Of a stretch of 64,000 bases of DNA, positions 2,923-58,726 are shown in pieces. The stretch comes from Minisyncoccota bacterium (GTDB lineage Bacteria > Patescibacteriota > Minisyncoccia > Phycocordibacterales > UBA9973): NCBI GenBank assembly GCA_041659205.1, contig JBAZYS010000004.1, forward strand, positions 587-64,586, written 5' to 3'. Made by a program: the position numbers and the translations under genes. Positions within the stretch are counted from its first letter, which is position 1. Each line of letters begins with the position of its first letter. The notes below the pieces were generated by a model that was not told where the DNA came from, searched no databases, and saw only the letters and a list, made by a program, of their open reading frames with translations.

Positions 2923-4290
2923 ATGGCAATTCAATCAAAAAATCCTGCAACACTTGAGGTCACAAAGAGTTTTGATGAACTAAGTGATACTGCTTTAGAA
3001 CAGAAAATTTCTAATGCATATAATTTTTTTCATAGCTGGAAAAATACTTCTTTTAATGAACGTGCAAAATTATTGCATGCCCATGCTAAATATCTTCGAG
3101 CACATGCAGAGGATATGGCCATACTAGCTAGTATCGAAATGGGTAAGACAAAAAAAGCTGGAATTACTGAAGTTGAAAAATGTGCTTTGGTTTGTGATTA
3201 TTATGCAGACAATGCAGAGAGCATGCTTGCAAATCAAAAAATTGAATCAAATGCCAAAGAGAACTATGTATCTTTCGAACCCCTTGGTGTCGTGCTCGCT
3301 GTAATGCCTTGGAATTTCCCATATTGGCAAGTATATCGTTTTATCGCGCCAGCCTTGATGGCAGGGAATGTGGGGCTCTTGAAGCATGCTTCGAACGTAC
3401 CCCAATGTGCGGAAGCTATAGAAAAGGCATTTTTAGAATCAGGTTTTCCAAAAGAAGCTTTTCAAAATTTATTCATTAGTTCAGCTAGAGTTGAGAAAGT
3501 AATCCGTGACCCTCGTGTTATGGCTGTCACTCTAACTGGCAGTGAAAATGCAGGGAAAAGTGTAGCATCCATTGCTGGTAGTGAGATAAAGAAAACAGTC
3601 CTTGAGCTTGGTGGTAGTGATCCATTTATTGTATTAGAAGATGCAGATATAGAATCTGCTGCAGAAAATGCAATGATAGGAAGAATGCAAAACAATGTGG
3701 GGCAGAGCTGTATCGCTGCAAAAAGATTTATTGTTTTAGAATCCGTTGCAGAAAAATTTACAAAGGCACTTCTAAATTATTTTTCAAAACTAGTTATTGG
3801 TGACCCACTTTCACTAGAGACCAATGTCGGTCCACTTGCGACTGAACAAGGTCTCCTAGAGGTAGAGAGACAAGTTAATGAATCAGTAAAGAAGGGAGCA
3901 AAGATATTATATGGTGGGAAAAGAATAGGAGATAAGGGATATTTCTTTGAGCCGACAATTTTAAGTAATATATCAAAAGGAATGCCTGTCTACGACGAAG
4001 AGACATTTGGGCCGATAGCACCTATCATTGTCGTTTCGAGCATTGATGAAGCTATAAACGTCGCCAATGATACTTCATTCGGGCTAGGAGCGACCATATT
4101 TTCTAAAGATATAGAGAATGCAAAGAAGTTAGCTACAAAGATTGAAGCAGGGAATGTATTCATCAATGGCTCCGTGCGGTCTGATCCACGTGTACCATTC
4201 GGTGGAATAAAACATTCGGGTTATGGACGGGAACTTTCGGATTATGGTATAAAAGAATTCGTTAATATTAAAAATGTTTATATCGTTTAG
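2923..4290 (+). CDS. NAD(P)-dependent aldehyde dehydrogenase (succinate-semialdehyde dehydrogenase-like family)
   Basis: ALDH-family motifs are present: ELGGSDP (catalytic Glu region), CIAAKR (catalytic Cys region), FGPIAPI and PFGGIKHSGYGRE. Length 455 aa. Confidence 0.85.
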   Translation: MAIQSKNPATLEVTKSFDELSDTALEQKISNAYNFFHSWKNTSFNERAKLLHAHAKYLRAHAEDMAILASIEMGKTKKAGITEVEKCALVCDYYADNAESMLANQKIESNAKENYVSFEPLGVVLAVMPWNFPYWQVYRFIAPALMAGNVGLLKHASNVPQCAEAIEKAFLESGFPKEAFQNLFISSARVEKVIRDPRVMAVTLTGSENAGKSVASIAGSEIKKTVLELGGSDPFIVLEDADIESAAENAMIGRMQNNVGQSCIAAKRFIVLESVAEKFTKALLNYFSKLVIGDPLSLETNVGPLATEQGLLEVERQVNESVKKGAKILYGGKRIGDKGYFFEPTILSNISKGMPVYDEETFGPIAPIIVVSSIDEAINVANDTSFGLGATIFSKDIENAKKLATKIEAGNVFINGSVRSDPRVPFGGIKHSGYGRELSDYGIKEFVNIKNVYIV

Positions 4291-6161: not shown

Positions 6162-6268
6162 AATTATGACATAACTTTTCGTAGGGGTTTTGCGAGTGAC
6201 GACGAGCAAACTTCAGGATTCTTTAAGCTTCAAAGAATCCGTACCGTAGAAGAGTTGATGTCATAATT
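6162..6268. repeat. copy 1 of a ~95-nt structured intergenic element (candidate ncRNA) with a closing inverted repeat
   Basis: Core 6175-6258 is ~85% identical to 17028-17111. It is flanked by the 11-bp inverted repeat AATTATGACAT / ATGTCATAATT (6162-6172 / 6258-6268). Internal 9-bp hairpin GGATTCTTT-aagcttc-AAAGAATCC (6216-6240). Confidence 0.6.
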
Positions 6269-6273
6269 GCTTA

Positions 6274-7605
6274 TTATTTTAAAATTTTAATATCTGCACC
6301 GATTGAGTTTAGACGTTTTGCTATTTCTTCATAGCCACGATTTATCATATAGACATTTCGGAGAATTGATGTTCCAGGAGCTCCAAGCATGGAAATAAGG
6401 ATAACCATCGATGGACGAAGGGCTGGAGGACATACCACCTGAGTTGCTTTAAGCGGTGTCCCACCTTGAATATAAAGACGATGTGCATCTGTTAGGCTTA
6501 CATTTGCTCCAAGTCGATTTAGTTCCGTCATATATATCATACGAACCTCATAGAACCAATCATGAATCATTGTCTGACCCTTTGCTTTTATTGCAATAGG
6601 TACAAAAAATGGCAGGTTGTCGATATTTATTCCAGGATAAATATTCGCATGTATTTTGTCTTGCAATGCTATCAATTTACTTGGGAATATTTCTATGTCT
6701 GCGAGTTTTGTACGGCCGTTGTAAGAATAATATCTCTTTAAAACTTTAAATTTCAAATGCATCCTGCGTAATTTTTCAAGCTCTAAAGAAAGGAAATCAA
6801 TTGGGCATCTGGTGATGGTAAGCCTTGAGTCTGTAACAATGCAGGCTGAGATAAACATCATGGATTCAATAGGGTCTTCGCTATTCCAGTATTCAACATT
6901 TTTATTTATTTCACTAACTCCATGAACAATTAAAGTGGAAGTTCCCACTCCGTCAATCTTTACTCCAAGGGTCTCAAGAAAGAAACAAACTTCTTGAACC
7001 ATATAATTATTACTCATGAAGCTTATTGTGGTATCTCCTTTGATTAAGGCTGCAGCAAATAAAGTATTTTCGCACGCAGTTTCTCCAGTTTCATACATAA
7101 CTATTTCTGCGGGTTTTAATTTTTTTGCAGTAATTTCATAGCTTTCACTAGTCGTTTTAATTTTTATGCCAAGTTCTTCTAGTGCATAAATATGAGCGGC
7201 AATTGTGCGTTTACCTAGATTACAACCTTGAGCGTGGGGCAATGAAAAGGATGGAATATGGTGTACCAATGATCCTATCAACATTACAACAGAACGAGTC
7301 CTAATAGATGACTCTACATTAATGTTTTTTAAATTAAATTTTTTCGGTGGAGTTATTTTAACAGTATTTTTATCCTTCCACTCAACACTTACTCCAATGC
7401 TTTCTAAAATTTCAATTACTCTATTTACTTCTTCGATTCTTGCAATACCATGAAGGGTAGTTGTGCCCTTATTTAAAAGTGAAGCACAGAGAAGGCCCAC
7501 AGATCCGTTTTTAGAAAAGTTCGTTTTAATACTTCCGCTCAATTTTTTTCCTCCATTTACTTCGAAATCAATTGAACTGCTTAATTGTATTTTTTTATTT
7601 TTCAT
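6274..7605 (-). CDS. murA: UDP-N-acetylglucosamine 1-carboxyvinyltransferase
   Basis: 443 aa EPSP-synthase-fold enzyme. N-terminal and central regions are typical of MurA (catalytic Cys region GCNLGKR). Confidence 0.9.
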   Translation of the reverse strand: MKNKKIQLSSSIDFEVNGGKKLSGSIKTNFSKNGSVGLLCASLLNKGTTTLHGIARIEEVNRVIEILESIGVSVEWKDKNTVKITPPKKFNLKNINVESSIRTRSVVMLIGSLVHHIPSFSLPHAQGCNLGKRTIAAHIYALEELGIKIKTTSESYEITAKKLKPAEIVMYETGETACENTLFAAALIKGDTTISFMSNNYMVQEVCFFLETLGVKIDGVGTSTLIVHGVSEINKNVEYWNSEDPIESMMFISACIVTDSRLTITRCPIDFLSLELEKLRRMHLKFKVLKRYYSYNGRTKLADIEIFPSKLIALQDKIHANIYPGINIDNLPFFVPIAIKAKGQTMIHDWFYEVRMIYMTELNRLGANVSLTDAHRLYIQGGTPLKATQVVCPPALRPSMVILISMLGAPGTSILRNVYMINRGYEEIAKRLNSIGADIKILK

Positions 7606-12721: not shown

Positions 12722-13612
12722 TTAACTAAAACTTGCATGAATCTCTCCGAGCTCTTCTTTAATTAATCCTTTAATTTCCATAACAGACAAAAGTGCATTA
12801 GCTGTTGGGGTGGGCATTTTCATCGCCCGAATTAATTCATCACGTGGGGCTGGTTCACGAAGTAAATTTACGACTAATTTTTCTTCTGGTAATAAATCTA
12901 AAAATAGCTTTGCTTGTTTTTCTTTATTTTTTGGAAGCTCAAAACCGAGAGCTTCCAAAACTTCTTCACTGCAAGTAACGGGCGTCGCCCCCTGATGTAA
13001 TAATTTATTCACCCCTTTTGAATTAGGAGAAAATATTGAACCAGGCACGACCAATACATCTCTATTGTATTCTGTTGCAAGTCTAGCCGTTATTAGTGTA
13101 CCAGACCTTTCTTCGGCCTCTATTATAAGTGTCGCTCTTGATATTCCCGCCATTAGACGATTTCTTCGGCCGAAGCTCCATAACGTTGCCTTAAAATCAG
13201 GTTCAAATTCTGACAAGAAGCATCCACCATTTGCGAAAATTTCTTCAGCCAATTTTACATTTGTTTTGGGGTACATCGCTTCAGGCGATAATCCTGAACC
13301 AGGAAAAACTAGAGCCCTTAATCCTACAGACAATGCTTTCTTATGAGCGATAGCATCTATACCCATAGCAAGGCCAGAAACAATTACTATCGGATAGCCC
13401 TTGAGTCCTCCAATTATCTTTTCGCAAGCTTCACGCCCGTATGAAGTAAATTTTCTAGAACCAACGACACAAAGGTAAATTAATTCCTCTGGTGGCAGTT
13501 CGCCCATAACCCAGAGGTCTTTCGGTGGTTGAGGAATTTCCAATAATGCTTTTGGAAAATCACTTTTAGGTAATTTTTTTATTTTCATACGAATGCAAAT
13601 AAAAAGTAGCAA
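12722..13612 (-). CDS. dprA: DNA processing protein DprA (Smf)
   Basis: Rossmann-like DprA core (VVSGLAMGIDAIAHKKAL ... GSGTLITA) and C-terminal wHTH. 296 aa. Confidence 0.85.
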   Translation of the reverse strand: MLLFICIRMKIKKLPKSDFPKALLEIPQPPKDLWVMGELPPEELIYLCVVGSRKFTSYGREACEKIIGGLKGYPIVIVSGLAMGIDAIAHKKALSVGLRALVFPGSGLSPEAMYPKTNVKLAEEIFANGGCFLSEFEPDFKATLWSFGRRNRLMAGISRATLIIEAEERSGTLITARLATEYNRDVLVVPGSIFSPNSKGVNKLLHQGATPVTCSEEVLEALGFELPKNKEKQAKLFLDLLPEEKLVVNLLREPAPRDELIRAMKMPTPTANALLSVMEIKGLIKEELGEIHASFS

Positions 13613-13773
13613 ATATCTTTTAAAAACCGCACATAATTTTTTACTAAAAATTTGCTAAGCTCTGCTCGTCAGCCTCTGCAATGCTTTTTAAAAGTTATTT
13701 ACTACTTTTTAGTACGTTAATAATATTATGTATTCTTCTTTTCAATATGCAAAATATATTATATACTCTCTAT

Positions 13774-16980: not shown

Positions 16981-17016
16981 GGTATTTCTTTCTAGGGGGT
17001 TTTGAGCAGAAAATTT

Positions 17017-17116
17017 TTGGAATAATACTTTTCGCAGGGGTTTTGCAAGCGACGGCGAGCAAACTTCAGGACTCTTTAAGCTTCAAAGAGTCCGTACCAA
17101 AGAAAAGTGATTATTC
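17017..17116. repeat. copy 2 of the ~95-nt structured intergenic element (candidate ncRNA)
   Basis: Core 17028-17111 matches 6175-6258. Hairpin GGACTCTTT-aagcttc-AAAGAGTCC carries a compensatory T>C / A>G change relative to copy 1. A different closing inverted repeat GGAATAAT / ATTATTCC (17017-17024 / 17109-17116). A degenerate partial third copy lies at 16993-17016. Confidence 0.6.
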
Positions 17117-17130
17117 CAAAAATTATATAA

Positions 17131-18189
17131 ATGTACTATAATGATTCCATGCATGACTTAGCTTTATATCGTAAATACAGGCCACAGAAGTGGGATCAAG
17201 TCTTCGGGCAAGAACACATCACCGATGTATTAGAGAGCTCTGTAGGGTCAAATAAAGTCTCTCATGCATACCTTTTCGTAGGATCTAGAGGCACAGGCAA
17301 GACGACCGTAGCCCGTATTTTTGCGAAAGAGATAGGCGTATCTGTAAACGACCTCTATGAGATAGATGCCGCCTCAAACAGAGGAATAGAAGATATAAAA
17401 GAACTCCGCGACGGCGTGCGAGTGTTGCCATTCGATTCGAAATACAAAGTTTACATCATAGATGAAGTACACATGCTCTCCAAGGACGCCTGGGGTGCAC
17501 TCTTGAAGACTCTCGAAGAGCCACCAAAGCATGTCATTTTTATTCTTGCTACGACCGAGCTTCATAAAGTCCCTGAGACTATTGTTTCTCGTTGCCAGGT
17601 TTTCACTTTCAAAAAGGCTTCCGAGCTTATGTTGAAGAACATAATTTTATACGTTGCGAAGGAAGAAGGCTATGATTTAGAAAAGGGTGCAGCCGAGCTC
17701 CTTGCTATTTTAGCTGATGGTTCATATCGTGATGGCCTGGGTGAACTTCAGAAAGTTTTAAATTTCTCTAAGGGCAAGAAAATCAAAAGAGAAGACGTGG
17801 AGAAAATAACCGGTGCGCCGAAGACGACCCTCGTGAATGATTTTATAAGTGCGATAGCAGAGAAAGATTTAGAGAAAGGAATAACTGCTGTGCGAACTGC
17901 ATCAGAATCAAATTTAGATATGAAATTATATTTCAAGCTCATCATTCAGAAATTCCGCATGGCAATTATCTTGCGTTATGCTCCGAAATTAGAAAAAGAT
18001 ATGACAGGGGACTTAGGTGAGGAAGATTTAGTATTTCTAAAAGCATTAATAAAGGAAGATAAAAACAGTATGCTCCGTTCAGGAGCCTTAGCTACCTTAC
18101 TTTCTGCTTACCAAGACATAGATAATACGTTTGTCGCTGAGCTTCCGCTCGAGCTTGCTCTTGTAAAAATAATCTCTGAAGAAAAATAA
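17131..18189 (+). CDS. dnaX: DNA polymerase III gamma/tau subunit, short form (AAA+ domains only)
   Basis: YRPQKWDQVFGQEHI signature, Walker A GSRGTGKTT, Walker B/DEVH region IIDEVHML. Only 352 aa. Confidence 0.75.
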   Translation: MYYNDSMHDLALYRKYRPQKWDQVFGQEHITDVLESSVGSNKVSHAYLFVGSRGTGKTTVARIFAKEIGVSVNDLYEIDAASNRGIEDIKELRDGVRVLPFDSKYKVYIIDEVHMLSKDAWGALLKTLEEPPKHVIFILATTELHKVPETIVSRCQVFTFKKASELMLKNIILYVAKEEGYDLEKGAAELLAILADGSYRDGLGELQKVLNFSKGKKIKREDVEKITGAPKTTLVNDFISAIAEKDLEKGITAVRTASESNLDMKLYFKLIIQKFRMAIILRYAPKLEKDMTGDLGEEDLVFLKALIKEDKNSMLRSGALATLLSAYQDIDNTFVAELPLELALVKIISEEK

Positions 18190-19645: not shown

Positions 19646-19735
19646 AGTCGTGATAGGTTATCTCGCACGAGATGCGTAGAAACCAAACGATGCACTATTC
19701 AGTCAAAGCATACCTGCTGAGAGCAGTATTCAGAA

Positions 19736-19764
19736 CAAAAAAACACCCTAATCGGTGTTTTTTT
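19736..19764 (+). terminator. Rho-independent terminator downstream of tRNA-Gln
   Basis: A-run, ACACC-ctaatc-GGTGT hairpin, T6 run. Confidence 0.55.
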
Positions 19765-21853
19765 GTTTGGTCTGATTTATCTTTCGGAGAAACTCTGTAT
19801 ATGCTATATTAGATTTAATATGGATGAATTTTTGGCTAACCTTTTACCTGGAAATTATTGGATAACAAAATCCATGGAATTTTCAAAGACCAATACCAGT
19901 GGCACTCTATGGTATCTTAAAAAATGGTTTGTTTACTATTACTATATTTTCTTTAAAAAAACGATACACGAGAATGATTATTTAGAAATAATAGAAATTT
20001 TTGATAAATTTATAATATCGCTAGATTCACGTGTCCAGGATAAAGCCAGGGGATTTTTTTATGAAATAGATATAAGGGCAAATTTTACAAGAATGAATGC
20101 TTTTTGTGACACCAGCGGAACTGTCTTCCCATCAGCTCGAGAAGAAGCCCAATCCATGGTTGAAGCTAAAAAGTTTTATTTTATGTATGTTATGGGCATA
20201 GGAGGACAAAGTGGTTATAAAAAAGAAATATTAGAACTTATCCAAGCTGGCACCTCATACACTGAGATAAAAAAAGTTATGGTAGAAAAAATGGAAAGTG
20301 ATGGAATACAATCGAACGATATAAAAATTCAATTTTCAGATTTTCCCGCCGCTATTCGCAATGAGAGACAAATATTTTTTTACTATGGGTTATTTCATGG
20401 TAGCGACAAGAAAGATTTGTCTGGTTTCTATACTATGACTCGACTAGGTAGATCAATAATATCTGCAACATTCTATGAATTAATAATTATATGGGAACAT
20501 CAAAAATTAAAGATGATATCCCAAAATCCAGATACGAAAATTGATTTAGGTAGCCATACCGTTAATACAAATTTGAATTATCCTGCTTTTGGTATCCATT
20601 ACCATCCATATGTAGCACTGTTAAAGACTCTAACAAACTTACAAACAACCAGTAAAGAAATCTATCAATTTTATATTGCTAGACTAAAAAATTCTCACGA
20701 TTTGAATGTTCTTTCGGAAAAAGTTAAGACCACACCTGCAGCGATAGAAGATATAAAAACAAAAATTGCATCTTTTAACAGAAAGGGAGATTTAGCAACG
20801 GAAGATTTTCATAAAGAATTTAAAAAATATGTCTTGGGGATTAGTAGTCTACCTTTAGATAATAATACTAATTTGTTCTCTTTTCTTTCTGAAGATGGAC
20901 TTGAGGTTGAGGATAATCCAAAAATTAGTTTTGTAATTAAATGCTACGACATAATTGCTAAATACTTAGATTTAAAAAATTCAGATAACTATAAAAACTT
21001 TGAAGGTAGTTTAAGACAATATTATCTTGCGCAAGTTAATAAAACTCCTTTCGAATATGACCCAGAAATAACATATGAATGGCATAAATATATAATATCT
21101 CCCGAGACTGCAATTATTTTAAGTGTTATCTACATATACTGCGCGCTAAAAAATAATAAATATGGTTTTGATTTAAGTGAAGCAGAAATTAAAGCCAACT
21201 ATAAGGAATTCAAAAACCTTTTGGAAATCACGGGTATTGGTAAGCAAAGTGATTTTATAGAAAACATACAACGAATTCAATCAGAACTCTCAGAAGGATC
21301 ATTGATGATGGCTTACGATACAGAGGAAGAGGAAATTCCTACTGTGTTTGATGAACTGGTTGATGAAAGCAAACTTGCTGAAATTTCAAAACGTACTAGT
21401 GCATTTAATGTTACCAGAAAAAGAAGTTCTGAAGTCATAAATGCTGTCAGAAGTTATTATCGAAAAAACTTTGAGCTTCCACCGGATAATCTTATTAAGT
21501 GTGATGCTTGTAGTGAGAAAACTTTTATGACAAAAGGTCAGTATGCTTATCTGGAATTTCATCATTTCATTCCTTTCTCTACTGATAATGGTCCGGATCA
21601 TTATCTAAATTTAGTTGGAATCTGTCCAATTTGTCACCGAAAATTCCATCATGCCACTAAAGATGTTAGGAAGGCTCTTTATGAAAACCTGTCAACAAAC
21701 AATAATATGAGAAAAACTCTAGATTTTCGTGTAAATAAATTATACGAGGAACGTGTACTCGAGCCATTAAATATTGAATTTCTCAGAAAGGAAAATATCA
21801 TCTCAAGGGAGAAATACGAAACTTACATGAATCAAGAAATTGTTGTTAGTTAA
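19763..21853 (+). CDS. large protein with a C-terminal HNH endonuclease domain (probable restriction endonuclease of the adjacent R-M module; likely true start is ATG 19820)
   Basis: C-terminal CDACSEK...EFHHFIPFS...NLVGICPICHRKFHH is the CxxC...HH...CxxC-H HNH/beta-beta-alpha-Me motif. Converges on and overlaps the MTase operon by 8 nt. Confidence 0.65.
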   Translation: MFGLIYLSEKLCICYIRFNMDEFLANLLPGNYWITKSMEFSKTNTSGTLWYLKKWFVYYYYIFFKKTIHENDYLEIIEIFDKFIISLDSRVQDKARGFFYEIDIRANFTRMNAFCDTSGTVFPSAREEAQSMVEAKKFYFMYVMGIGGQSGYKKEILELIQAGTSYTEIKKVMVEKMESDGIQSNDIKIQFSDFPAAIRNERQIFFYYGLFHGSDKKDLSGFYTMTRLGRSIISATFYELIIIWEHQKLKMISQNPDTKIDLGSHTVNTNLNYPAFGIHYHPYVALLKTLTNLQTTSKEIYQFYIARLKNSHDLNVLSEKVKTTPAAIEDIKTKIASFNRKGDLATEDFHKEFKKYVLGISSLPLDNNTNLFSFLSEDGLEVEDNPKISFVIKCYDIIAKYLDLKNSDNYKNFEGSLRQYYLAQVNKTPFEYDPEITYEWHKYIISPETAIILSVIYIYCALKNNKYGFDLSEAEIKANYKEFKNLLEITGIGKQSDFIENIQRIQSELSEGSLMMAYDTEEEEIPTVFDELVDESKLAEISKRTSAFNVTRKRSSEVINAVRSYYRKNFELPPDNLIKCDACSEKTFMTKGQYAYLEFHHFIPFSTDNGPDHYLNLVGICPICHRKFHHATKDVRKALYENLSTNNNMRKTLDFRVNKLYEERVLEPLNIEFLRKENIISREKYETYMNQEIVVS

Positions 21854-25419: not shown

Positions 25420-25750
25420 CATGATGTCAGAGAAAGGGTCTTTTGCTAAGACTCGCTTGTTGGCAACTTGTTGGTAACTTTCCTCTGTGATTTAAAGGTT
25501 CTGCGATAGGATGGGCTTGGAATAATAGGGTCGAAAGTGGTATTATTCATTTACAAGTAAATAAGTAGTAGCCTAAACCTTTGGAAACAAAGGCATGGCG
25601 AAGAAGTCGATCAAGCGTAAAGAACCTATCATATAGGGTCGCTTGATCGCCATATTGGGAAACCAGTATGAGTACCGCAAGGTACTACCTATGTGGTAGG
25701 CTTTTTGCGTCTTACCCTAGGATTTTATAAATAAAACGCAACAAAAAAAT
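25420..25750. other. GC-rich structured non-coding region upstream of the serine recombinase gene (candidate recombination site or regulatory RNA)
   Basis: No ORF. Several perfect hairpins (TCGATCAAGCG/CGCTTGATCG 10 bp, GTACCgcaaGGTAC, GGTCTTttgctaAGACT). Confidence 0.3.
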
Positions 25751-54837: not shown

Positions 54838-57072
54838 ATGAATAAACTGTCTTTTAAGAAAATTCTCGTATTATTAACAACCCCGCTATTTTTAGTTGGT
54901 GGTTTTTTTGTAGCGAATGTGTTTGCAGGTGTAGCACAAGTCATCACTAGCCCTGCTACTTCTATAACTACAAATGATGCAGCACTTAATGGTATTAATG
55001 GACCTAGTGATGCTACCGGGCATTCGTTTTGGGTTTCTCTAGCAACTTTTGATACCTCAAGCCCAACAATTCCAGCTGGCGTGTATTCTACACCTGACCT
55101 GGGAGCGATCTCTGCAGATACTTCTTTCTCTGCCACTCTTTCATCTATTACAACTTCTGGTGTCCCTGGAAATCTTCCTGCGATAACACCAAATACAACA
55201 TATTATTTCGTGGCATGGTCTCTTGTTGGGGGAACATGGTATCCTGGCGCAATATTATCTTTCAACACAGACCCAATTCCAACACCAGACTGCAATGGGA
55301 GTAGTTTTGATAGTTTTACTTTGGGCTCAGTAAATGGTCAAGGTGGATGGGGAGTAACTGGTTCATACGATCAAGCTGTTGTTGCTAACACTTTTAGTTA
55401 TCCAACCTTCGGTTGCCAAACCCTTAGAATATCAGACTCTGTAACCAGTGGTTCATTCGGTGACCAAATTTTTGCTAATCCTGAAGTTAATGGTGCAGGG
55501 GAAACAGACTCTACTGCAGCTGGTTTTTCAATAGGAACACTTCAAAATCATTTCGAAGCTCAGTTTGATATTGCGTCTACGGTGCAAAGTTATCAACCTG
55601 GTATGCATATGTCAATTTCTCCAGATCGTGGAGATGGATCACGAATGAGTTACCTAAGATTAGAAGATTCTACTGATGGTATAAATGTTTTCTTTGATGA
55701 TGTTCAAAGTGAAAATGCTGGTTTTCAGGCAGCTAACTTTGTCGAAACTCAAGTTGCAAGTAACCTAAATCGTTCAGTACCTCATACTTTTAAATTTGTT
55801 ATGGATTTTCATGATGGTTCTTCCAACGATATAGTGAAGGTCTACATAGATGGCTCTCTTGTCCACACTGGTACAAGTTGGGAAAATTATTATCGTTTTG
55901 ACACTGAAGCATCAGCTGAACAGACCCCTAGAATCGTAAAGACAGTATTGTTCCGCGAAAGTGGAGCAAACACTCCAGCAGATGCTGGTAACGGATTTTT
56001 AATTGATAATTATTCTATTTCTTCTTCAATCCTTAATCCAAATCCTACTACATTAGCTGCTACTGATGATCACGTAGATGATGCAACGATAAACGGAACA
56101 AATGGTGGATATGATGCAGCGGGGCATTCATTCTGGGTTTCATTGGCTCCATTTTCTACAGTAAGCCCAACAATTCCAGCTGATGTTTATTCTACACCTG
56201 ATCTTGGTGCTATTTCTGCTGGAGCTCCTTTCTCTGCCACACTTTCATCTGTTACAACTACAGGTGTTCCAACGAATCTTCCTCCAATAACTTCAAGCAC
56301 AAGATATTATTTCGTTGCTTGGTCTCTAGTAAATGGTACATGGTATCCAGGAGAAATGTTAAGTGTAGATACAGTCACACCTTTTGAAAATCCTCCTGCG
56401 CCAGTAGTTCATATTTCAGCCTTACCTTTGACTCTCACAGAAGGTGGCACAACAGTTATCACATACACAACAGAAAATATTGACGGTTGTACTAAAGCAG
56501 GAGACTGGTCTGGATCAACTGAAGGCTCTGGTTCTGACACAGTAGGTCCACTTTCTGCTGGTACTTATACTTATACACTTAACTGTAATGGTATTCCTGG
56601 CACGCACAGAGGTGCAAGTGGAAGTGTTACGGTCACTGTCACTTCTATTCCTCGCGGAGGCGGAGGATCAAATACTTATGGTACACCTCCATCCACTCCG
56701 CCTGTAGTTGGCGAAGTGCTAGGTGCTTCAACAGGACCAGACCAAAGAGAAATAGGAGGATGTGACATGAGAACAACTGGATTTAGTATAACTACTGGAG
56801 AGTCATGCATAAATAATATTCCGCATAGCGATGGAAAAGTTCTAGGTGCGGAAACATTCCAATTTTATAGAACACTAAAATATGGTATGACAGGGGATGA
56901 TGTATTAGAGCTTCATAAAAAACTCACAGTCTTAGGATATTATAAAGGTCCTATTGATGATGGATTTGGTTATATTCTAGAAGCAGCAATAAAAGCATTT
57001 CAAAAGGCAAATCCTCCATTAAAAATGGATGGAATTGTAGGTCCGGAAACTAGAGAAATACTTAATAAATAA
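54838..57072 (+). CDS. large secreted protein with two ~100-aa internal repeats and a C-terminal peptidoglycan-binding (PG_binding_1-like) domain
   Basis: Signal peptide. Repeated ...GHSFWVSLA.F.T.SPTIPA.VYSTPDLGAISA...YYFVAWSLV.GTWYPG... C-terminal LELHKKLTVLGYYKGPIDDGFG...DGIVGPETR. Confidence 0.7.
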   Translation: MNKLSFKKILVLLTTPLFLVGGFFVANVFAGVAQVITSPATSITTNDAALNGINGPSDATGHSFWVSLATFDTSSPTIPAGVYSTPDLGAISADTSFSATLSSITTSGVPGNLPAITPNTTYYFVAWSLVGGTWYPGAILSFNTDPIPTPDCNGSSFDSFTLGSVNGQGGWGVTGSYDQAVVANTFSYPTFGCQTLRISDSVTSGSFGDQIFANPEVNGAGETDSTAAGFSIGTLQNHFEAQFDIASTVQSYQPGMHMSISPDRGDGSRMSYLRLEDSTDGINVFFDDVQSENAGFQAANFVETQVASNLNRSVPHTFKFVMDFHDGSSNDIVKVYIDGSLVHTGTSWENYYRFDTEASAEQTPRIVKTVLFRESGANTPADAGNGFLIDNYSISSSILNPNPTTLAATDDHVDDATINGTNGGYDAAGHSFWVSLAPFSTVSPTIPADVYSTPDLGAISAGAPFSATLSSVTTTGVPTNLPPITSSTRYYFVAWSLVNGTWYPGEMLSVDTVTPFENPPAPVVHISALPLTLTEGGTTVITYTTENIDGCTKAGDWSGSTEGSGSDTVGPLSAGTYTYTLNCNGIPGTHRGASGSVTVTVTSIPRGGGGSNTYGTPPSTPPVVGEVLGASTGPDQREIGGCDMRTTGFSITTGESCINNIPHSDGKVLGAETFQFYRTLKYGMTGDDVLELHKKLTVLGYYKGPIDDGFGYILEAAIKAFQKANPPLKMDGIVGPETREILNK

Positions 57073-57090
57073 TTTTTTAAAAACAAATTC

Positions 57091-57118
57091 CCCACTAAAT
57101 ATGTGGGTTTTGTTTTAA
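57091..57118 (+). terminator. Rho-independent terminator
   Basis: CCCAC-taaatat-GTGGG then TTTTGTTTT. Confidence 0.6.
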
Positions 57119-57245
57119 CTGGTTGCATATTTAGTTATATACACATTATGCACTTATTACCTTGACACCTTCTTTTTTTTATTATAAAAATAAGATTAAG
57201 TTTTAAAATTATTAACAATAATATTAGTAATATAAATAGAAATAT

Positions 57246-58637
57246 ATGAAAAAATATCTATCTATCGGTTTTATGTCTGTGTTGGTTTTTGGAGGATTAG
57301 TGGTCGCAAATAAAGCAAACGCAACAGTAGCGCCTGGTCCAACAGTGGGTACTATTTTAATAACCCCCTCTGTGGTTAAGGATGAAGTACTTTATATTGG
57401 TAAATTAACAAGTATTTCAGCACCAATAGAAGATACAACTGGTTTTGGAATTGATCCAACTTCATGCGTATATGTCATTGATGGTGGTAGTACAAGTGGT
57501 ACACCTGTGCCAGATGCATACGTTGATTCAAATTGTGTTTTTACGGATCTAGATACTTCTGCTGCTCACGGTAGTTTAAATGTCAAAGTAAGGGATCTTG
57601 AAGGGGGAACTGGTTTGGGCAGATGGACTGTTTTTACCTTAGATATTACTCCTCCAGAAATTGCACCTCATGATAAAATTACAGTTGAAACAGTGGCCAC
57701 TTCCGCAAACATAAGTACAGGAGTAGCTGTTGACTACACTGCACCTGATGCTACTGATAACGTAGATGCAACAGCACCAGCTACCTGTCTTCCTGCTTCG
57801 GGCTCTATTTTTCCATTTGGTATAACTAATGTTAAGTGTAACAAAACAGACACATTAGGAAATGTTGCGACAGAAACAAATTTTGATATCAAAGTTCAAG
57901 ATACAATCGACCCAATAATTGTTCAAGCTGATGGAGCTTATTCAATCAAAAAAACTGGCCCGAATACAATAGAAGTTCTTTTTGATGGTGAATTACAAAA
58001 TAATCCAAGTGGACATCACCCAAGTGCTAGTGATTTCTACGCTTACAACGACCTAGATAGTTCTGAAGACTTTAGTGGAGGAGATGTATCATATGGAATT
58101 ATTGATGACGCTGTAAGCTATTCAAACAGTACACATACTGTATTCATAAATTTAACGAATTCAATAAATGCTGGAGACAAACCAAGATTATTAGTTGCTG
58201 ATACTCGAGCATCCCTTGTTGATTTTGCTAATAATTATTTTAACGATGGAAATTGGTTTGACCAGCCTGTGATAGACCCAACACCAAGAGGCGGTGGAGC
58301 ACTTATGTCTTACCCTGAGCAAACTCCTCCTCCTGTAGCACCTGTAGACCAAACACCTCCTCCAGTCACAGAACAACCAGCTCTTCCACCTACTTCTGGA
58401 GAAGTTCTCGGTGCAGAGACATATCAATTCACTCGAACACTAAGGCGTGGAATGAAAGGGGATGATGTGTTAGAACTTCATAAAAAACTTACAGAATTAG
58501 GATTCTACAAAGGTGTTATAGATGATATCTTTGGTAGAGAATTAGAAAAAGCTGTAAAAGAATATCAAAAGGCAAATCCTCCATTAAAAATTGATGGAAT
58601 CGTAGGTCCGAAAACAAGAGCAGTACTTAATAAATAA
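57246..58637 (+). CDS. secreted paralog with the same C-terminal peptidoglycan-binding domain
   Basis: Signal peptide. C-terminal LELHKKLTELGFYKGVIDDIFG...DGIVGPKTR nearly identical to the previous gene's C-terminus. Pro-rich linker. Confidence 0.7.
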   Translation: MKKYLSIGFMSVLVFGGLVVANKANATVAPGPTVGTILITPSVVKDEVLYIGKLTSISAPIEDTTGFGIDPTSCVYVIDGGSTSGTPVPDAYVDSNCVFTDLDTSAAHGSLNVKVRDLEGGTGLGRWTVFTLDITPPEIAPHDKITVETVATSANISTGVAVDYTAPDATDNVDATAPATCLPASGSIFPFGITNVKCNKTDTLGNVATETNFDIKVQDTIDPIIVQADGAYSIKKTGPNTIEVLFDGELQNNPSGHHPSASDFYAYNDLDSSEDFSGGDVSYGIIDDAVSYSNSTHTVFINLTNSINAGDKPRLLVADTRASLVDFANNYFNDGNWFDQPVIDPTPRGGGALMSYPEQTPPPVAPVDQTPPPVTEQPALPPTSGEVLGAETYQFTRTLRRGMKGDDVLELHKKLTELGFYKGVIDDIFGRELEKAVKEYQKANPPLKIDGIVGPKTRAVLNK

Positions 58638-58653
58638 ATTTTATTAACAAAAA

Positions 58654-58682
58654 CCCCACTCACAAGTGGGTTTTTTGTTTTT
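58654..58682 (+). terminator. Rho-independent terminator (duplicated along with the paralog)
   Basis: CCCACT-caca-AGTGGG then TTTTTTGTTTTTT. Confidence 0.6.
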
Positions 58683-58726
58683 TAAAACAGTTGCATATTA
58701 TTACCTTTTTAAGATATAATGCATCC

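Follow-up and report, generated by a model that had tools for sequence, protein, structure and literature searches.

Hairpin repeats in the window

The DNA analysed here, referred to as the window, is a stretch of 64,000 nucleotides from a Minisyncoccota bacterium (assembly GCA_041659205.1, contig JBAZYS010000004.1, positions 587 to 64,586) which contains two closely similar intergenic copies of a palindromic element predicted to fold into a long hairpin with a branched tip. Copy 1 is located between the stop codon of murA (6274) and the start codon of miaA (6154), both encoded on the minus strand, and copy 2 between dus (end 16980) and dnaX (start at about 17131-17150), both encoded on the plus strand; these gene assignments, made in a first-pass annotation from the letters of the window, were confirmed by Pfam. 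The two segments had been interpreted as copies of a candidate non-coding RNA (ncRNA), with a miniature inverted-repeat transposable element (MITE) as the option listed last. The description of a repeated, covarying structured element outside the known families holds, while the status of an ncRNA gene was not borne out.

The similarity between the copies covers 82 nt of the plus strand (6174-6255 and 17027-17108) at 89% identity according to a repeat finder, the earlier estimate being about 85% for 6175-6258 and 17028-17111. A 35-nt degenerate pattern of this core matches the window exactly twice, with no match expected from 100 shuffles. Copy 1 occupies 107 of the 119 nt that separate the miaA start from the murA stop, and murA and miaA both run antisense to its structured strand.

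In both copies the plus strand forms one long hairpin with a three-way junction, with folding energies of -37.9 and -40.4 kcal/mol for copies 1 and 2 (z-scores of -6.3 and -7.2) compared with -29.6 and -38.7 kcal/mol for the minus strand. The compensatory change noticed at the outset is located in hairpin P3, where GGATTCTTT/AAAGAATCC (6216-6224 / 6232-6240) of copy 1 corresponds to GGACTCTTT/AAAGAGTCC of copy 2, a U:A pair being replaced by C:G. The hairpin described as TTTGC-N12-GCAAA, P2, was found in both copies; its 12-nt 'loop' is not unstructured and reads GA-GY-GACG-RC-GA, with a second compensatory pair (U24:A29 in copy 1, C:G in copy 2). In addition, the G.U pair at 6177:6252 of copy 1 becomes A-U in copy 2. 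The closing inverted repeats are unlike in the two copies, as had been reported, namely AATTATGACAT / ATGTCATAATT (11 nt) in copy 1 and AATTTTTGGAATAAT / ATTATTCCAAAAATT in copy 2; the latter, at 15 nt and 100% complementary, is longer than was first given. The nucleotide immediately inside the outer 3' arm of copy 1, G6257, is a single bulge of the 3'-arm type typical of the family. The components of the elements are listed in Table 1.

Table 1. Elements of the window and their component parts
Feature	Position	Strand	Remarks
Copy 1, entire hairpin element	6162..6268	+	Covariance-model scores 128.9 bits (E=7.9e-32) and 126 bits
Copy 1, P1 outer 5' arm AATTATGACAT	6162..6172	+	Pairs with 6258-6268
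Copy 1, P1 outer 3' arm ATGTCATAATT	6258..6268	+	Pairs with 6162-6172
Copy 1, conserved core	6174..6255	+	Inner P1, internal loop, GG:CC, three-way junction
Copy 1, inner P1	6174-6180 / 6249-6255	+	Includes U.G at 6177:6252
Copy 1, purine-rich 3x3 internal loop GUA/GUA	6181-6183 / 6246-6248	+	
Copy 1, GG:CC step	6184-6185 / 6244-6245	+	Followed by the three-way junction
Copy 1, hairpin P2, GG-UUU(U)GC-GA-GU-GACG-AC-GA-GC-AAA-CU	6186..6212	+	Symmetric tandem G.A internal loop, G-N-C-G loop
Copy 1, hairpin P3, GGAUUCUUU-AAGCUUC-AAAGAAUCC	6216..6240	+	Conserved GUACC next (6241-6245)
Copy 2, entire hairpin element	17012..17124	+	128.3 bits; between dus and dnaX, sense to both
Copy 2, arms	17012-17026 / 17110-17124	+	
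Copy 2, core	17027-17108	+	
Copy 2, bulged G	17109	+	
Third, diverged 'W-type' member	about 13592..13711	-	Between dprA start and serS start (divergent genes)

The third, diverged member has arms (13600-13626 / 13685-13711) of 27 nt that are 93% complementary, a P2 with the GACG loop, an A/U-rich P3, and GUGC replacing GUACC. It scored 18.5 bits in one covariance model and 26.8 bits (E=3.8e-4) in a model built without it, and its site is orthologous to those of the clear copies L045:10052-10171 and L088:6683-6804. The same W-type variant occupies the dprA-serS site of locus L018, where P3 is different yet still paired. The window thus holds three copies in 64 kb; a covariance-model scan of its whole length revealed none beyond these, and the next matches (E>=0.46) were ordinary terminator hairpins.

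Family size and host range

When one genome per prokaryotic species was scanned for the pattern GGGGTTTTGC-N6-20-GCAAACTTCAGG, 39 loci were obtained. True copies were present in 35 of them, all in metagenome-assembled genomes (MAGs) of Patescibacteria labelled Paceibacterota, Nomurabacteria or 'Saccharibacteria', with several copies per genome and up to five in one MAG; the remaining four were chance matches with a different spacing. In metagenomes, a scan based on the opposite half of the element returned at least 120 stretches, and cmsearch with covariance models, which include more diverged members, identified at least 99 further copies. The search for more copies that had been proposed therefore resulted in at least 131 distinct copies in genomes of Paceibacteria and Nomurabacteria and in metagenomes.

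The family is confined to Paceibacteria, which here means Nomurabacteria and relatives of the Candidate Phyla Radiation (CPR). The loci assigned to 'uncultured Candidatus Saccharibacteria' (e.g. L002, L008, L016 and L018) all carry the element; these labels belong to third-party-annotated MAGs and are probably wrong, since L018 aligns in synteny with the Paceibacterota window over 5.8 kb. A phage or plasmid origin was rejected, as IMG/VR, the INPHARED phages and the PLSDB plasmids contained no match.

The proposed comparison with Rfam, whose families include self-cleaving ribozymes, Y RNA-like RNAs, SRP, 6S and known repeat-associated motifs, placed the element in no known family. In Rfam 15 at the gathering threshold, the window matched only LOOT and two tRNAs, all elsewhere than the element, and both copies searched at E<=10 gave only chance matches of 8-17 bits against cut-offs of 40-180. 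Full-text literature searches on CPR/Patescibacteria with repeats, MITEs or structured RNA turned up no account of the family, and these phyla go unmentioned in the 2017 survey of 224 RNA motifs. Apparently, this is an undescribed large family of hairpin repeats of about 110-135 bases.

Diverged core types were also observed (L030:7242-7362, L089:4840-4958, L050:8193-8311, L049 at about 6540-6680 on the minus strand, and L018 at about 3690-3812), in which GAGAC...GUGCUC stands for GGGG...GUACC and other P3 sequences occur, while the G-A-C-G loop is retained and the architecture is common to the canonical family. The outer terminal repeat of the L049 type is the same as that of the canonical family, and at one orthologous site the canonical type is replaced by a diverged one.

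Conserved fold and covariation

Every copy is closed by the stem P1, with a median length of 22 bp (interquartile range 15-25), whose sequence varies between copies with the pairing retained. Between P1 and the three-way junction lie a purine-rich symmetric internal loop (GNA/GNA) and a GG:CC step. Two hairpins extend from the junction, P2 with its tandem G.A internal loop and G-N-C-G apical loop, and P3 (GGAUUUUUU-AAGCUUC-AAAAAAUCC), which is followed by GUACC. The tip sequences GGGG, CUUCAGG and GUACC are invariant, and conservation reaches 94-100% at positions outside the search pattern, namely GGGG, the P2 loop residues G and C-G, and the G.A tandem at its G. The G-run is combined with the C-run after GUA as four G and two C in 86 copies and as five G and three C in 36, with two exceptions. 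Because the two run lengths track each other, and because the diverged element L030:7242-7362 has GAG...CUC where the canonical runs lie, the first G's of the G-run are considered to pair with the C's after GUA; an alternative pairing GGGG:CUUC is conceivable, both of its sides being invariant.

Covariation was evaluated in 90 metagenomic copies, none of which had been used in model building. In this alignment, which was fitted to the model and in which many sequences are related by descent, paired cells amounted to 93.7% compared with 78.7% in shuffles, and 24 of the 34 pairs were changed on both sides. The covariation score was 0.389 against 0.116 in shuffles, none of 500 shuffles attaining the observed values, and did not exceed 0.086 in slid controls with the partners moved by 1-3 columns. 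All 14 pairs of P1 covary; P3 (helix 4) is 99.1% paired, with both-side changes in five of its nine pairs; and P2 occurs in the pair types GC/GC, CC/GG, AC/GU, GCC/GGC, GGC/GCC, GCGC/GCGC, GGCU/AGCC and GCCC/GGGC. The covariation of helices first claimed from the two window copies is thus found across the family.

The P3 loop (6225-6230 and 17078-17083 in the window) holds the self-complementary sequence AAGCUU, corresponding to a HindIII site, and loop-loop pairing between copies would be possible in principle; a few copies have a non-palindromic P3 loop (AAACUU, AACCUU).

Strand specificity

Three types of evidence distinguish the two strands. The model alignment has 59 G.U/U.G pairs in P1 against 14 A.C/C.A, and a minimum-free-energy-based tally of the genome set has 26 G.U against 2 A.C. 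At the first P3 pair of the genome-scan set, 20 copies have G-C, 15 have G.U and none has A.C; among copies antisense to their neighbours the ratio of G.U to A.C is 53 to 4. The conserved tandem G.A pairs would read U.C/C.U on the opposite strand. At least 50 copies have their single bulge, 5-10 bp below the junction, in the 3' arm, whereas a 5'-arm bulge is seen in four. The G.U excess, the tandem G.A and the one-arm bulge therefore indicate that the fold is selected on the strand that is plus in the window. A one-strand secondary structure supported by covariation, as expected of a structured ncRNA, is present; the selected molecule could be RNA or single-stranded DNA, since both tolerate G.T and sheared G.A.

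Presence, absence, inversion and duplication

In four relatives with MiaA 77-81% identical to that of the window, the murA stop and the miaA start are separated by 0-6 nt and no intact element is present. The junction contains neither element nor hairpin in three of them; in the fourth, L044, an 84-nt deletion scar has left the 5' arm together with the initial 12 nt of the element, fused in frame to miaA. In L049 only the outer arms are left, as the solo hairpin AAAACTCGTTGAAGAGTTTT, at a site that is filled in other genomes. There are many other filled/empty orthologous pairs. The insertion polymorphism that had been suggested as a check between strains was accordingly found between species-level relatives (70-87% flank identity) in all cases.

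Orientation had been described as independent of the neighbouring genes, and this holds even at orthologous loci, where the core occurs flipped. At the murA-miaA junction of L009 the element is opposite in orientation to that of the window, the bulge being flipped together with the core, and both orientations occur within six of 18 orthologous groups. Locus L048 contains two copies 1.2 kb apart that are 98% identical over about 118 nt, including the arms, with unrelated flanks and no target duplication. Mobility in the manner of a MITE is evident from this duplicate and from the empty orthologous junctions.

Copy 2 has orthologues in L018 and L069. The former (L018:123-244, corresponding to window 17013-17134) lies downstream of dus and has lost its 3' arm, and it is precisely at the 3' edge of the core that L018 and the window cease to be syntenic; this comparison of sequences suggests that the elements are rearrangement break points. 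It is likely that the elements mark both assembly break points and rearrangement sites.

The element is read through in frame in the annotated MiaA homologues P0017, P0048, P0109 and P0117 ('...GFASDGEQTSGIFKLKKFRT...'), and thus explains spurious N-terminal extensions, e.g. MiaA of 310-322 aa versus the usual 279-290 aa. A coding function was considered, as one plus-strand frame is open and read in some annotated MiaA proteins, but the compensatory changes rewrite the encoded peptide freely and selection is therefore not on a protein. Other MiaA homologues have the N-terminal extensions 'NTPHPSPLLVKEREKF...' and '...PRSEFWQSAKHADKKSAL...' (P0032, P0062, P0112 and P0037, P0058), which by their sequence look like read-through of two other repeat families at the murA-miaA junction; if so, this junction would be a hot spot for small insertions.

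Arms and ends

The arms have a weak consensus that reaches about 27-30 nt either side of the core, with A predominating in the 5' arm and T in the 3' arm. The closing repeats of copies 1 and 2 are therefore not unrelated sequences; they have diverged from this common consensus with the pairing kept. The absence of a T-run, noted earlier, is correct in that neither window copy has a clean one after the stem, while family-wide T abounds within the outer 3' arm and A within the outer 5' arm. Among the long copies a subset terminates in TGAATTACRAAACTC / GAGTTTYGTAATTCA, spaced constantly at about 119 nt (exactly 119 nt in six of nine pairs), and these ends are also found on elements with diverged core types. 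Many copies, including both from the window, retain only the inner part of the long-copy arm consensus. Overall, the units resemble MITEs in being non-coding, 107-135 bp long, dispersed in many copies and bounded by complementary terminal repeats in every copy.

The window also contains core-less palindromes composed of an A-tract, a hairpin and a T-tract, at 19734-19767 (AACAAAAAAACACC/GGTGTTTTTTTGTT, after a tRNA gene) and at 58639-58686 (22-nt). They are ordinary bidirectional terminators of the genome, in contrast to the element.

Genomic position

Flanking genes were classified for at least 131 distinct copies, using crude ORF calls, relative to the structured strand: both genes are antisense ('--') in 45 copies and sense ('++') in 21, the '+-' arrangement occurs in 27 and '-+' in 10, and nine copies overlap an ORF. 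Relative to the remaining gene junctions in these loci, convergent sites are over-represented (26% vs 13%) and divergent ones under-represented (10% vs 15%; p=0.002). Most copies lie just after stop codons, which are located at the base of the stem. G.U pairs, which appear as A.C mismatches in the mRNA strand, number 53 in 48 antisense copies versus nine in 22 sense copies. With respect to intrinsic terminators the features are mixed: the elements lie downstream of stop codons, favour convergent junctions and have a T-rich outer 3' arm, but the stem is A/U-rich and 15-28 bp long and carries a branched insert of about 70 nt, the window copies have no separate U-run after it, and copy 1 lies within the murA-miaA pair. 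Alignment of the 5' flanks revealed no conserved promoter-like motif.

Clustering of the neighbouring proteins gave a largest cluster of 7 out of 245, which consists of orthologous loci, and no recurrent host-gene family was found; a cis-regulator of one gene family or an adjacent transposase was rejected on this basis. With the coding effect removed, the GC skew of the flanks on the element strand was -0.027 and 61% of loci were negative (p=4e-4), a weak signal which suggests that the structured strand is more often lagging-strand sequence. Orientation set by replication direction was rejected, given that this skew is weak and that convergent copies are unbiased with respect to the locally dominant gene strand.

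Nature of the elements

The MITE-like alternative fits the DNA-level evidence best, because of the presence and absence at orthologous sites, the 98% duplicate with its arms and the terminal inverted repeats of the long copies. Both segments are accordingly interpreted, with a confidence that is about evenly balanced, as copies of a mobile, non-autonomous, MITE/REP-like palindromic repeat of about 110-135 bp with a hairpin-dependent mechanism of propagation. Most economically, the folded single strand, either DNA or an RNA copy, would be the substrate recognised by a trans-acting enzyme that copies or maintains the element. Inversions could result from recombination or template switching between the two arms, and the surviving copies would be those in which the hairpin is least harmful, at the 3' ends of genes and with the weaker-folding strand preferentially in host mRNA. 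The repeat is set apart from the MITE/REP kind by a branched core that covaries on one strand and is the most conserved part, by the lack of a target duplication and by frequent inversion.

Several observations weigh against a mobile repeat. No transposase or partner enzyme was found in about 1.2 Mb of loci (8-14-kb pieces around copies). The same loci contain no pair of long-copy ends at a spacing like that of an insertion sequence (IS), the single 4.1-kb pair being two separate small elements. Neither the nine long copies nor the two copies of L048 are flanked by a direct repeat or target motif. Identity at variable positions is alike within and between contigs, with no sign of within-genome homogenisation, and concerted evolution of the cores was rejected for this reason. 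A three-way junction combined with tandem G.A and purine-rich internal loops is met with more typically in functional RNAs than at the ends of transposons. Finally, resident copies are unlike decaying junk: identity between orthologous filled sites amounts to 76% in the flanks, which are mostly coding, 78% in the core and 56% in the arms, yet the arms are still 92% paired, and orthologues differ by compensatory changes in P1, P2 and P3, as between window copy 1 and L099, L109 and L079. Such conservation in place points to purifying selection for the fold of each resident copy or to repeated re-seeding of the sites; the same site, e.g. 'site A', can hold different core types. It also lends some plausibility to two rival readings taken up below, a host-maintained cis-acting module at gene 3' ends and a true ncRNA family.

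A further possibility, given a minor but real chance, is that the three-way-junction head, borne on a long stem of arbitrary sequence, is a functional, host-maintained single-stranded RNA or DNA module that is present at dozens of gene junctions and spreads by a hairpin-dependent route free of target-site duplication. Such a module could, for example, be a protein-binding platform that serves to form transcript 3' ends, to prime replication or repair, or to handle taken-up DNA.

Action of a host-maintained module in cis at the 3' ends of genes, as a bidirectional terminator, an mRNA 3'-end protector or an RNase III site with a cap that binds a Paceibacteria-specific protein, is considered unlikely. 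The stem base abutting stop codons, the twofold convergent enrichment with divergent depletion, and the resemblance of the A-tract/T-tract arm consensus to the plain terminators at 19734-19767 and 58639-58686 speak for it, as do a core as conserved as coding flanks at orthologous sites, arms that remain paired despite turnover, and the filling of the same junctions across many species. However, copy 1 and its orthologues sit within the murA-miaA pair, where a terminator would cut off miaA, given the tight coupling of the two genes (0-6 nt) in relatives. Furthermore, the conserved fold is usually not in the mRNA, as judged from the predominance of antisense copies (45 vs 21), in which the G.U excess is strongest; both canonical window copies are without a clean U-run after the stem; individual sites are dispensable, empty ones being common; and 10 copies, including the third one of the window, lie between divergent genes.

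Independently transcribed genes for small structured RNAs of about 100-130 nt, trans-acting or part of a ribonucleoprotein, with the variable stems serving as processing stalks or guide-like segments, appear rather improbable. The strand-specific covariation, G.U tolerance, tandem sheared-type G.A, purine-rich loops and invariant junction are the usual marks of functional RNAs, and the conservation of positions outside the search pattern and the independence of orientation from the neighbours are in keeping with such genes. Nevertheless, the 5' flank in which a promoter motif was sought is a variable stem arm, and the element fills nearly the whole intergenic space, so that a promoter of copy 1 would have to be inside miaA. 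The structured strand is mostly antisense in tandem contexts, tens of diverged copies per small genome with site-wise presence and absence are unexpected for a trans-acting RNA, and the unit duplicates like DNA, together with its arms and terminal inverted repeats.

Stems derived from the target, whether by entry of the core into the loops of existing hairpins or by inverted duplication of the flanks, are very improbable and largely refuted. In their favour, some stems resemble ordinary terminators (AAAAAAACACC/GGTGTTTTTTT of L012 is like window 19734-19767), the five copies of MAG JAPLXU01 have identical cores with different arms, and L049 has a solo hairpin where other genomes are filled. 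Against them, empty murA-miaA junctions of 0-6 nt have no hairpin that a core could have invaded, the arms of 99 copies are no closer to their own flanks than to those of other copies, a weak family arm consensus and conserved ends of long copies exist, the L048 duplicate brings its arms along, and the identical JAPLXU01 cores are the family consensus, for which the exact 22-nt pattern of the scan selected.

The genomes of Paceibacteria and of CPR bacteria in general are very small and streamlined, and experimental genetics is nearly lacking for them. A repeat every ~20 kb therefore needs explanation, the more so when over 130 copies retain a branched fold on one strand. If the repeat is selfish DNA, it would represent hairpin-dependent mobilisation without target duplication by an enzyme yet to be found; if it is a host-maintained module, it would constitute a new class of structured RNA or single-stranded DNA, represented by over 130 covarying members from a phylum that has hardly been studied. 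The family of at least 131 copies provides a ready-made covariance model for the annotation of Paceibacteria MAGs.

Other features of the window

A full-length LOOT RNA motif (RF03000), a small RNA candidate, is located at 25570-25686 on the plus strand (85 bits vs a gathering threshold of 46.4, E=1.3e-14). The region 54974-58681 contains three pairs of direct repeats of 139-300 nt that are 74-78% identical and 1.1-1.6 kb apart; these are probably tandem paralogous genes.

Comparison with known systems

The bacterial MITEs that form one hairpin include Correia/NEMIS of Neisseria, ERIC/IRU, RUP and bcr1. Like these, the Paceibacteria repeat is non-coding, within the size class of about 100-160 bp, dispersed in many copies and bounded by terminal inverted repeats, is found in intergenic regions near gene ends in either orientation, is polymorphic between relatives and would form a long stem-loop if transcribed. 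Correia elements duplicate TA, whereas no target-site duplication was seen here; in addition, no related IS or transposase was found, the host range is that of Paceibacteria, and the ends are variable and the centre most conserved. Those MITE families are not known to show strand-specific covariation of a three-way junction at their centre.

A second group is represented by the REP/BIME elements and RAYT transposases (see the account in Di Nocera et al. 2013, PMC3733652). The repeat resembles REP/BIME in being palindromic, in its position just downstream of genes, in the lack of a target duplication and in a stem structure that outweighs sequence; side-effects on termination and mRNA stability, proposed for REP/BIME, form a further parallel. 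Unlike REPs, which are simple hairpins of 20-40 nt with a GTAG or CGTC tag at one end, the Paceibacteria unit has 107-135 nt, a branched tip and A/T-rich untagged ends. RAYT is a Y1/HUH transposase, and REPs are proposed to mobilise as recognised single-stranded hairpins. No RAYT gene was seen in the approximately 1.2 Mb of loci around copies, in which no systematic RAYT search was made.

The Rickettsia palindromic elements (RPE) occur in a reduced genome, either in intergenic regions or read in frame within proteins. The present repeat is likewise palindromic, found in a reduced genome and read through in frame, here in MiaA homologues; unlike RPE, to which it has no sequence relation, its in-frame cases may be artefacts of N-terminal annotation. 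Small mobile hairpins of fold-defined families that repeatedly invade compact intergenic regions are also known as the repetitive hairpin-forming elements of sponge mitochondria (RHE, PMC2800124) and the double-hairpin elements of fungal mitochondria. These organelle elements differ in being shorter and without a conserved branched core, and have different hosts and no homology to the Paceibacteria repeat.

Two further systems offer a structural analogy only. Integron attC sites share the strand-specific folding of single-stranded DNA, extrahelical bases, the importance of structure over sequence and the location at gene 3' ends. They have conserved ends (RYYYAAC/GTTRRRY) and a variable centre, and form integrase-dependent cassette arrays in one direction. 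An attC site was rejected: in the present element it is the centre that is conserved and the ends that vary, its inner ends AAC-YYYY...RRRR-GTT run in the reverse order, and it occurs in both orientations, next to housekeeping genes. The terminal repeats of parvoviruses combine a long stem with two small hairpins in a three-way junction and occur in 'flip/flop' configurations, as does the element; the parvoviral hairpins are the ends of linear genomes, whereas the Paceibacteria repeats are internal to the chromosome.

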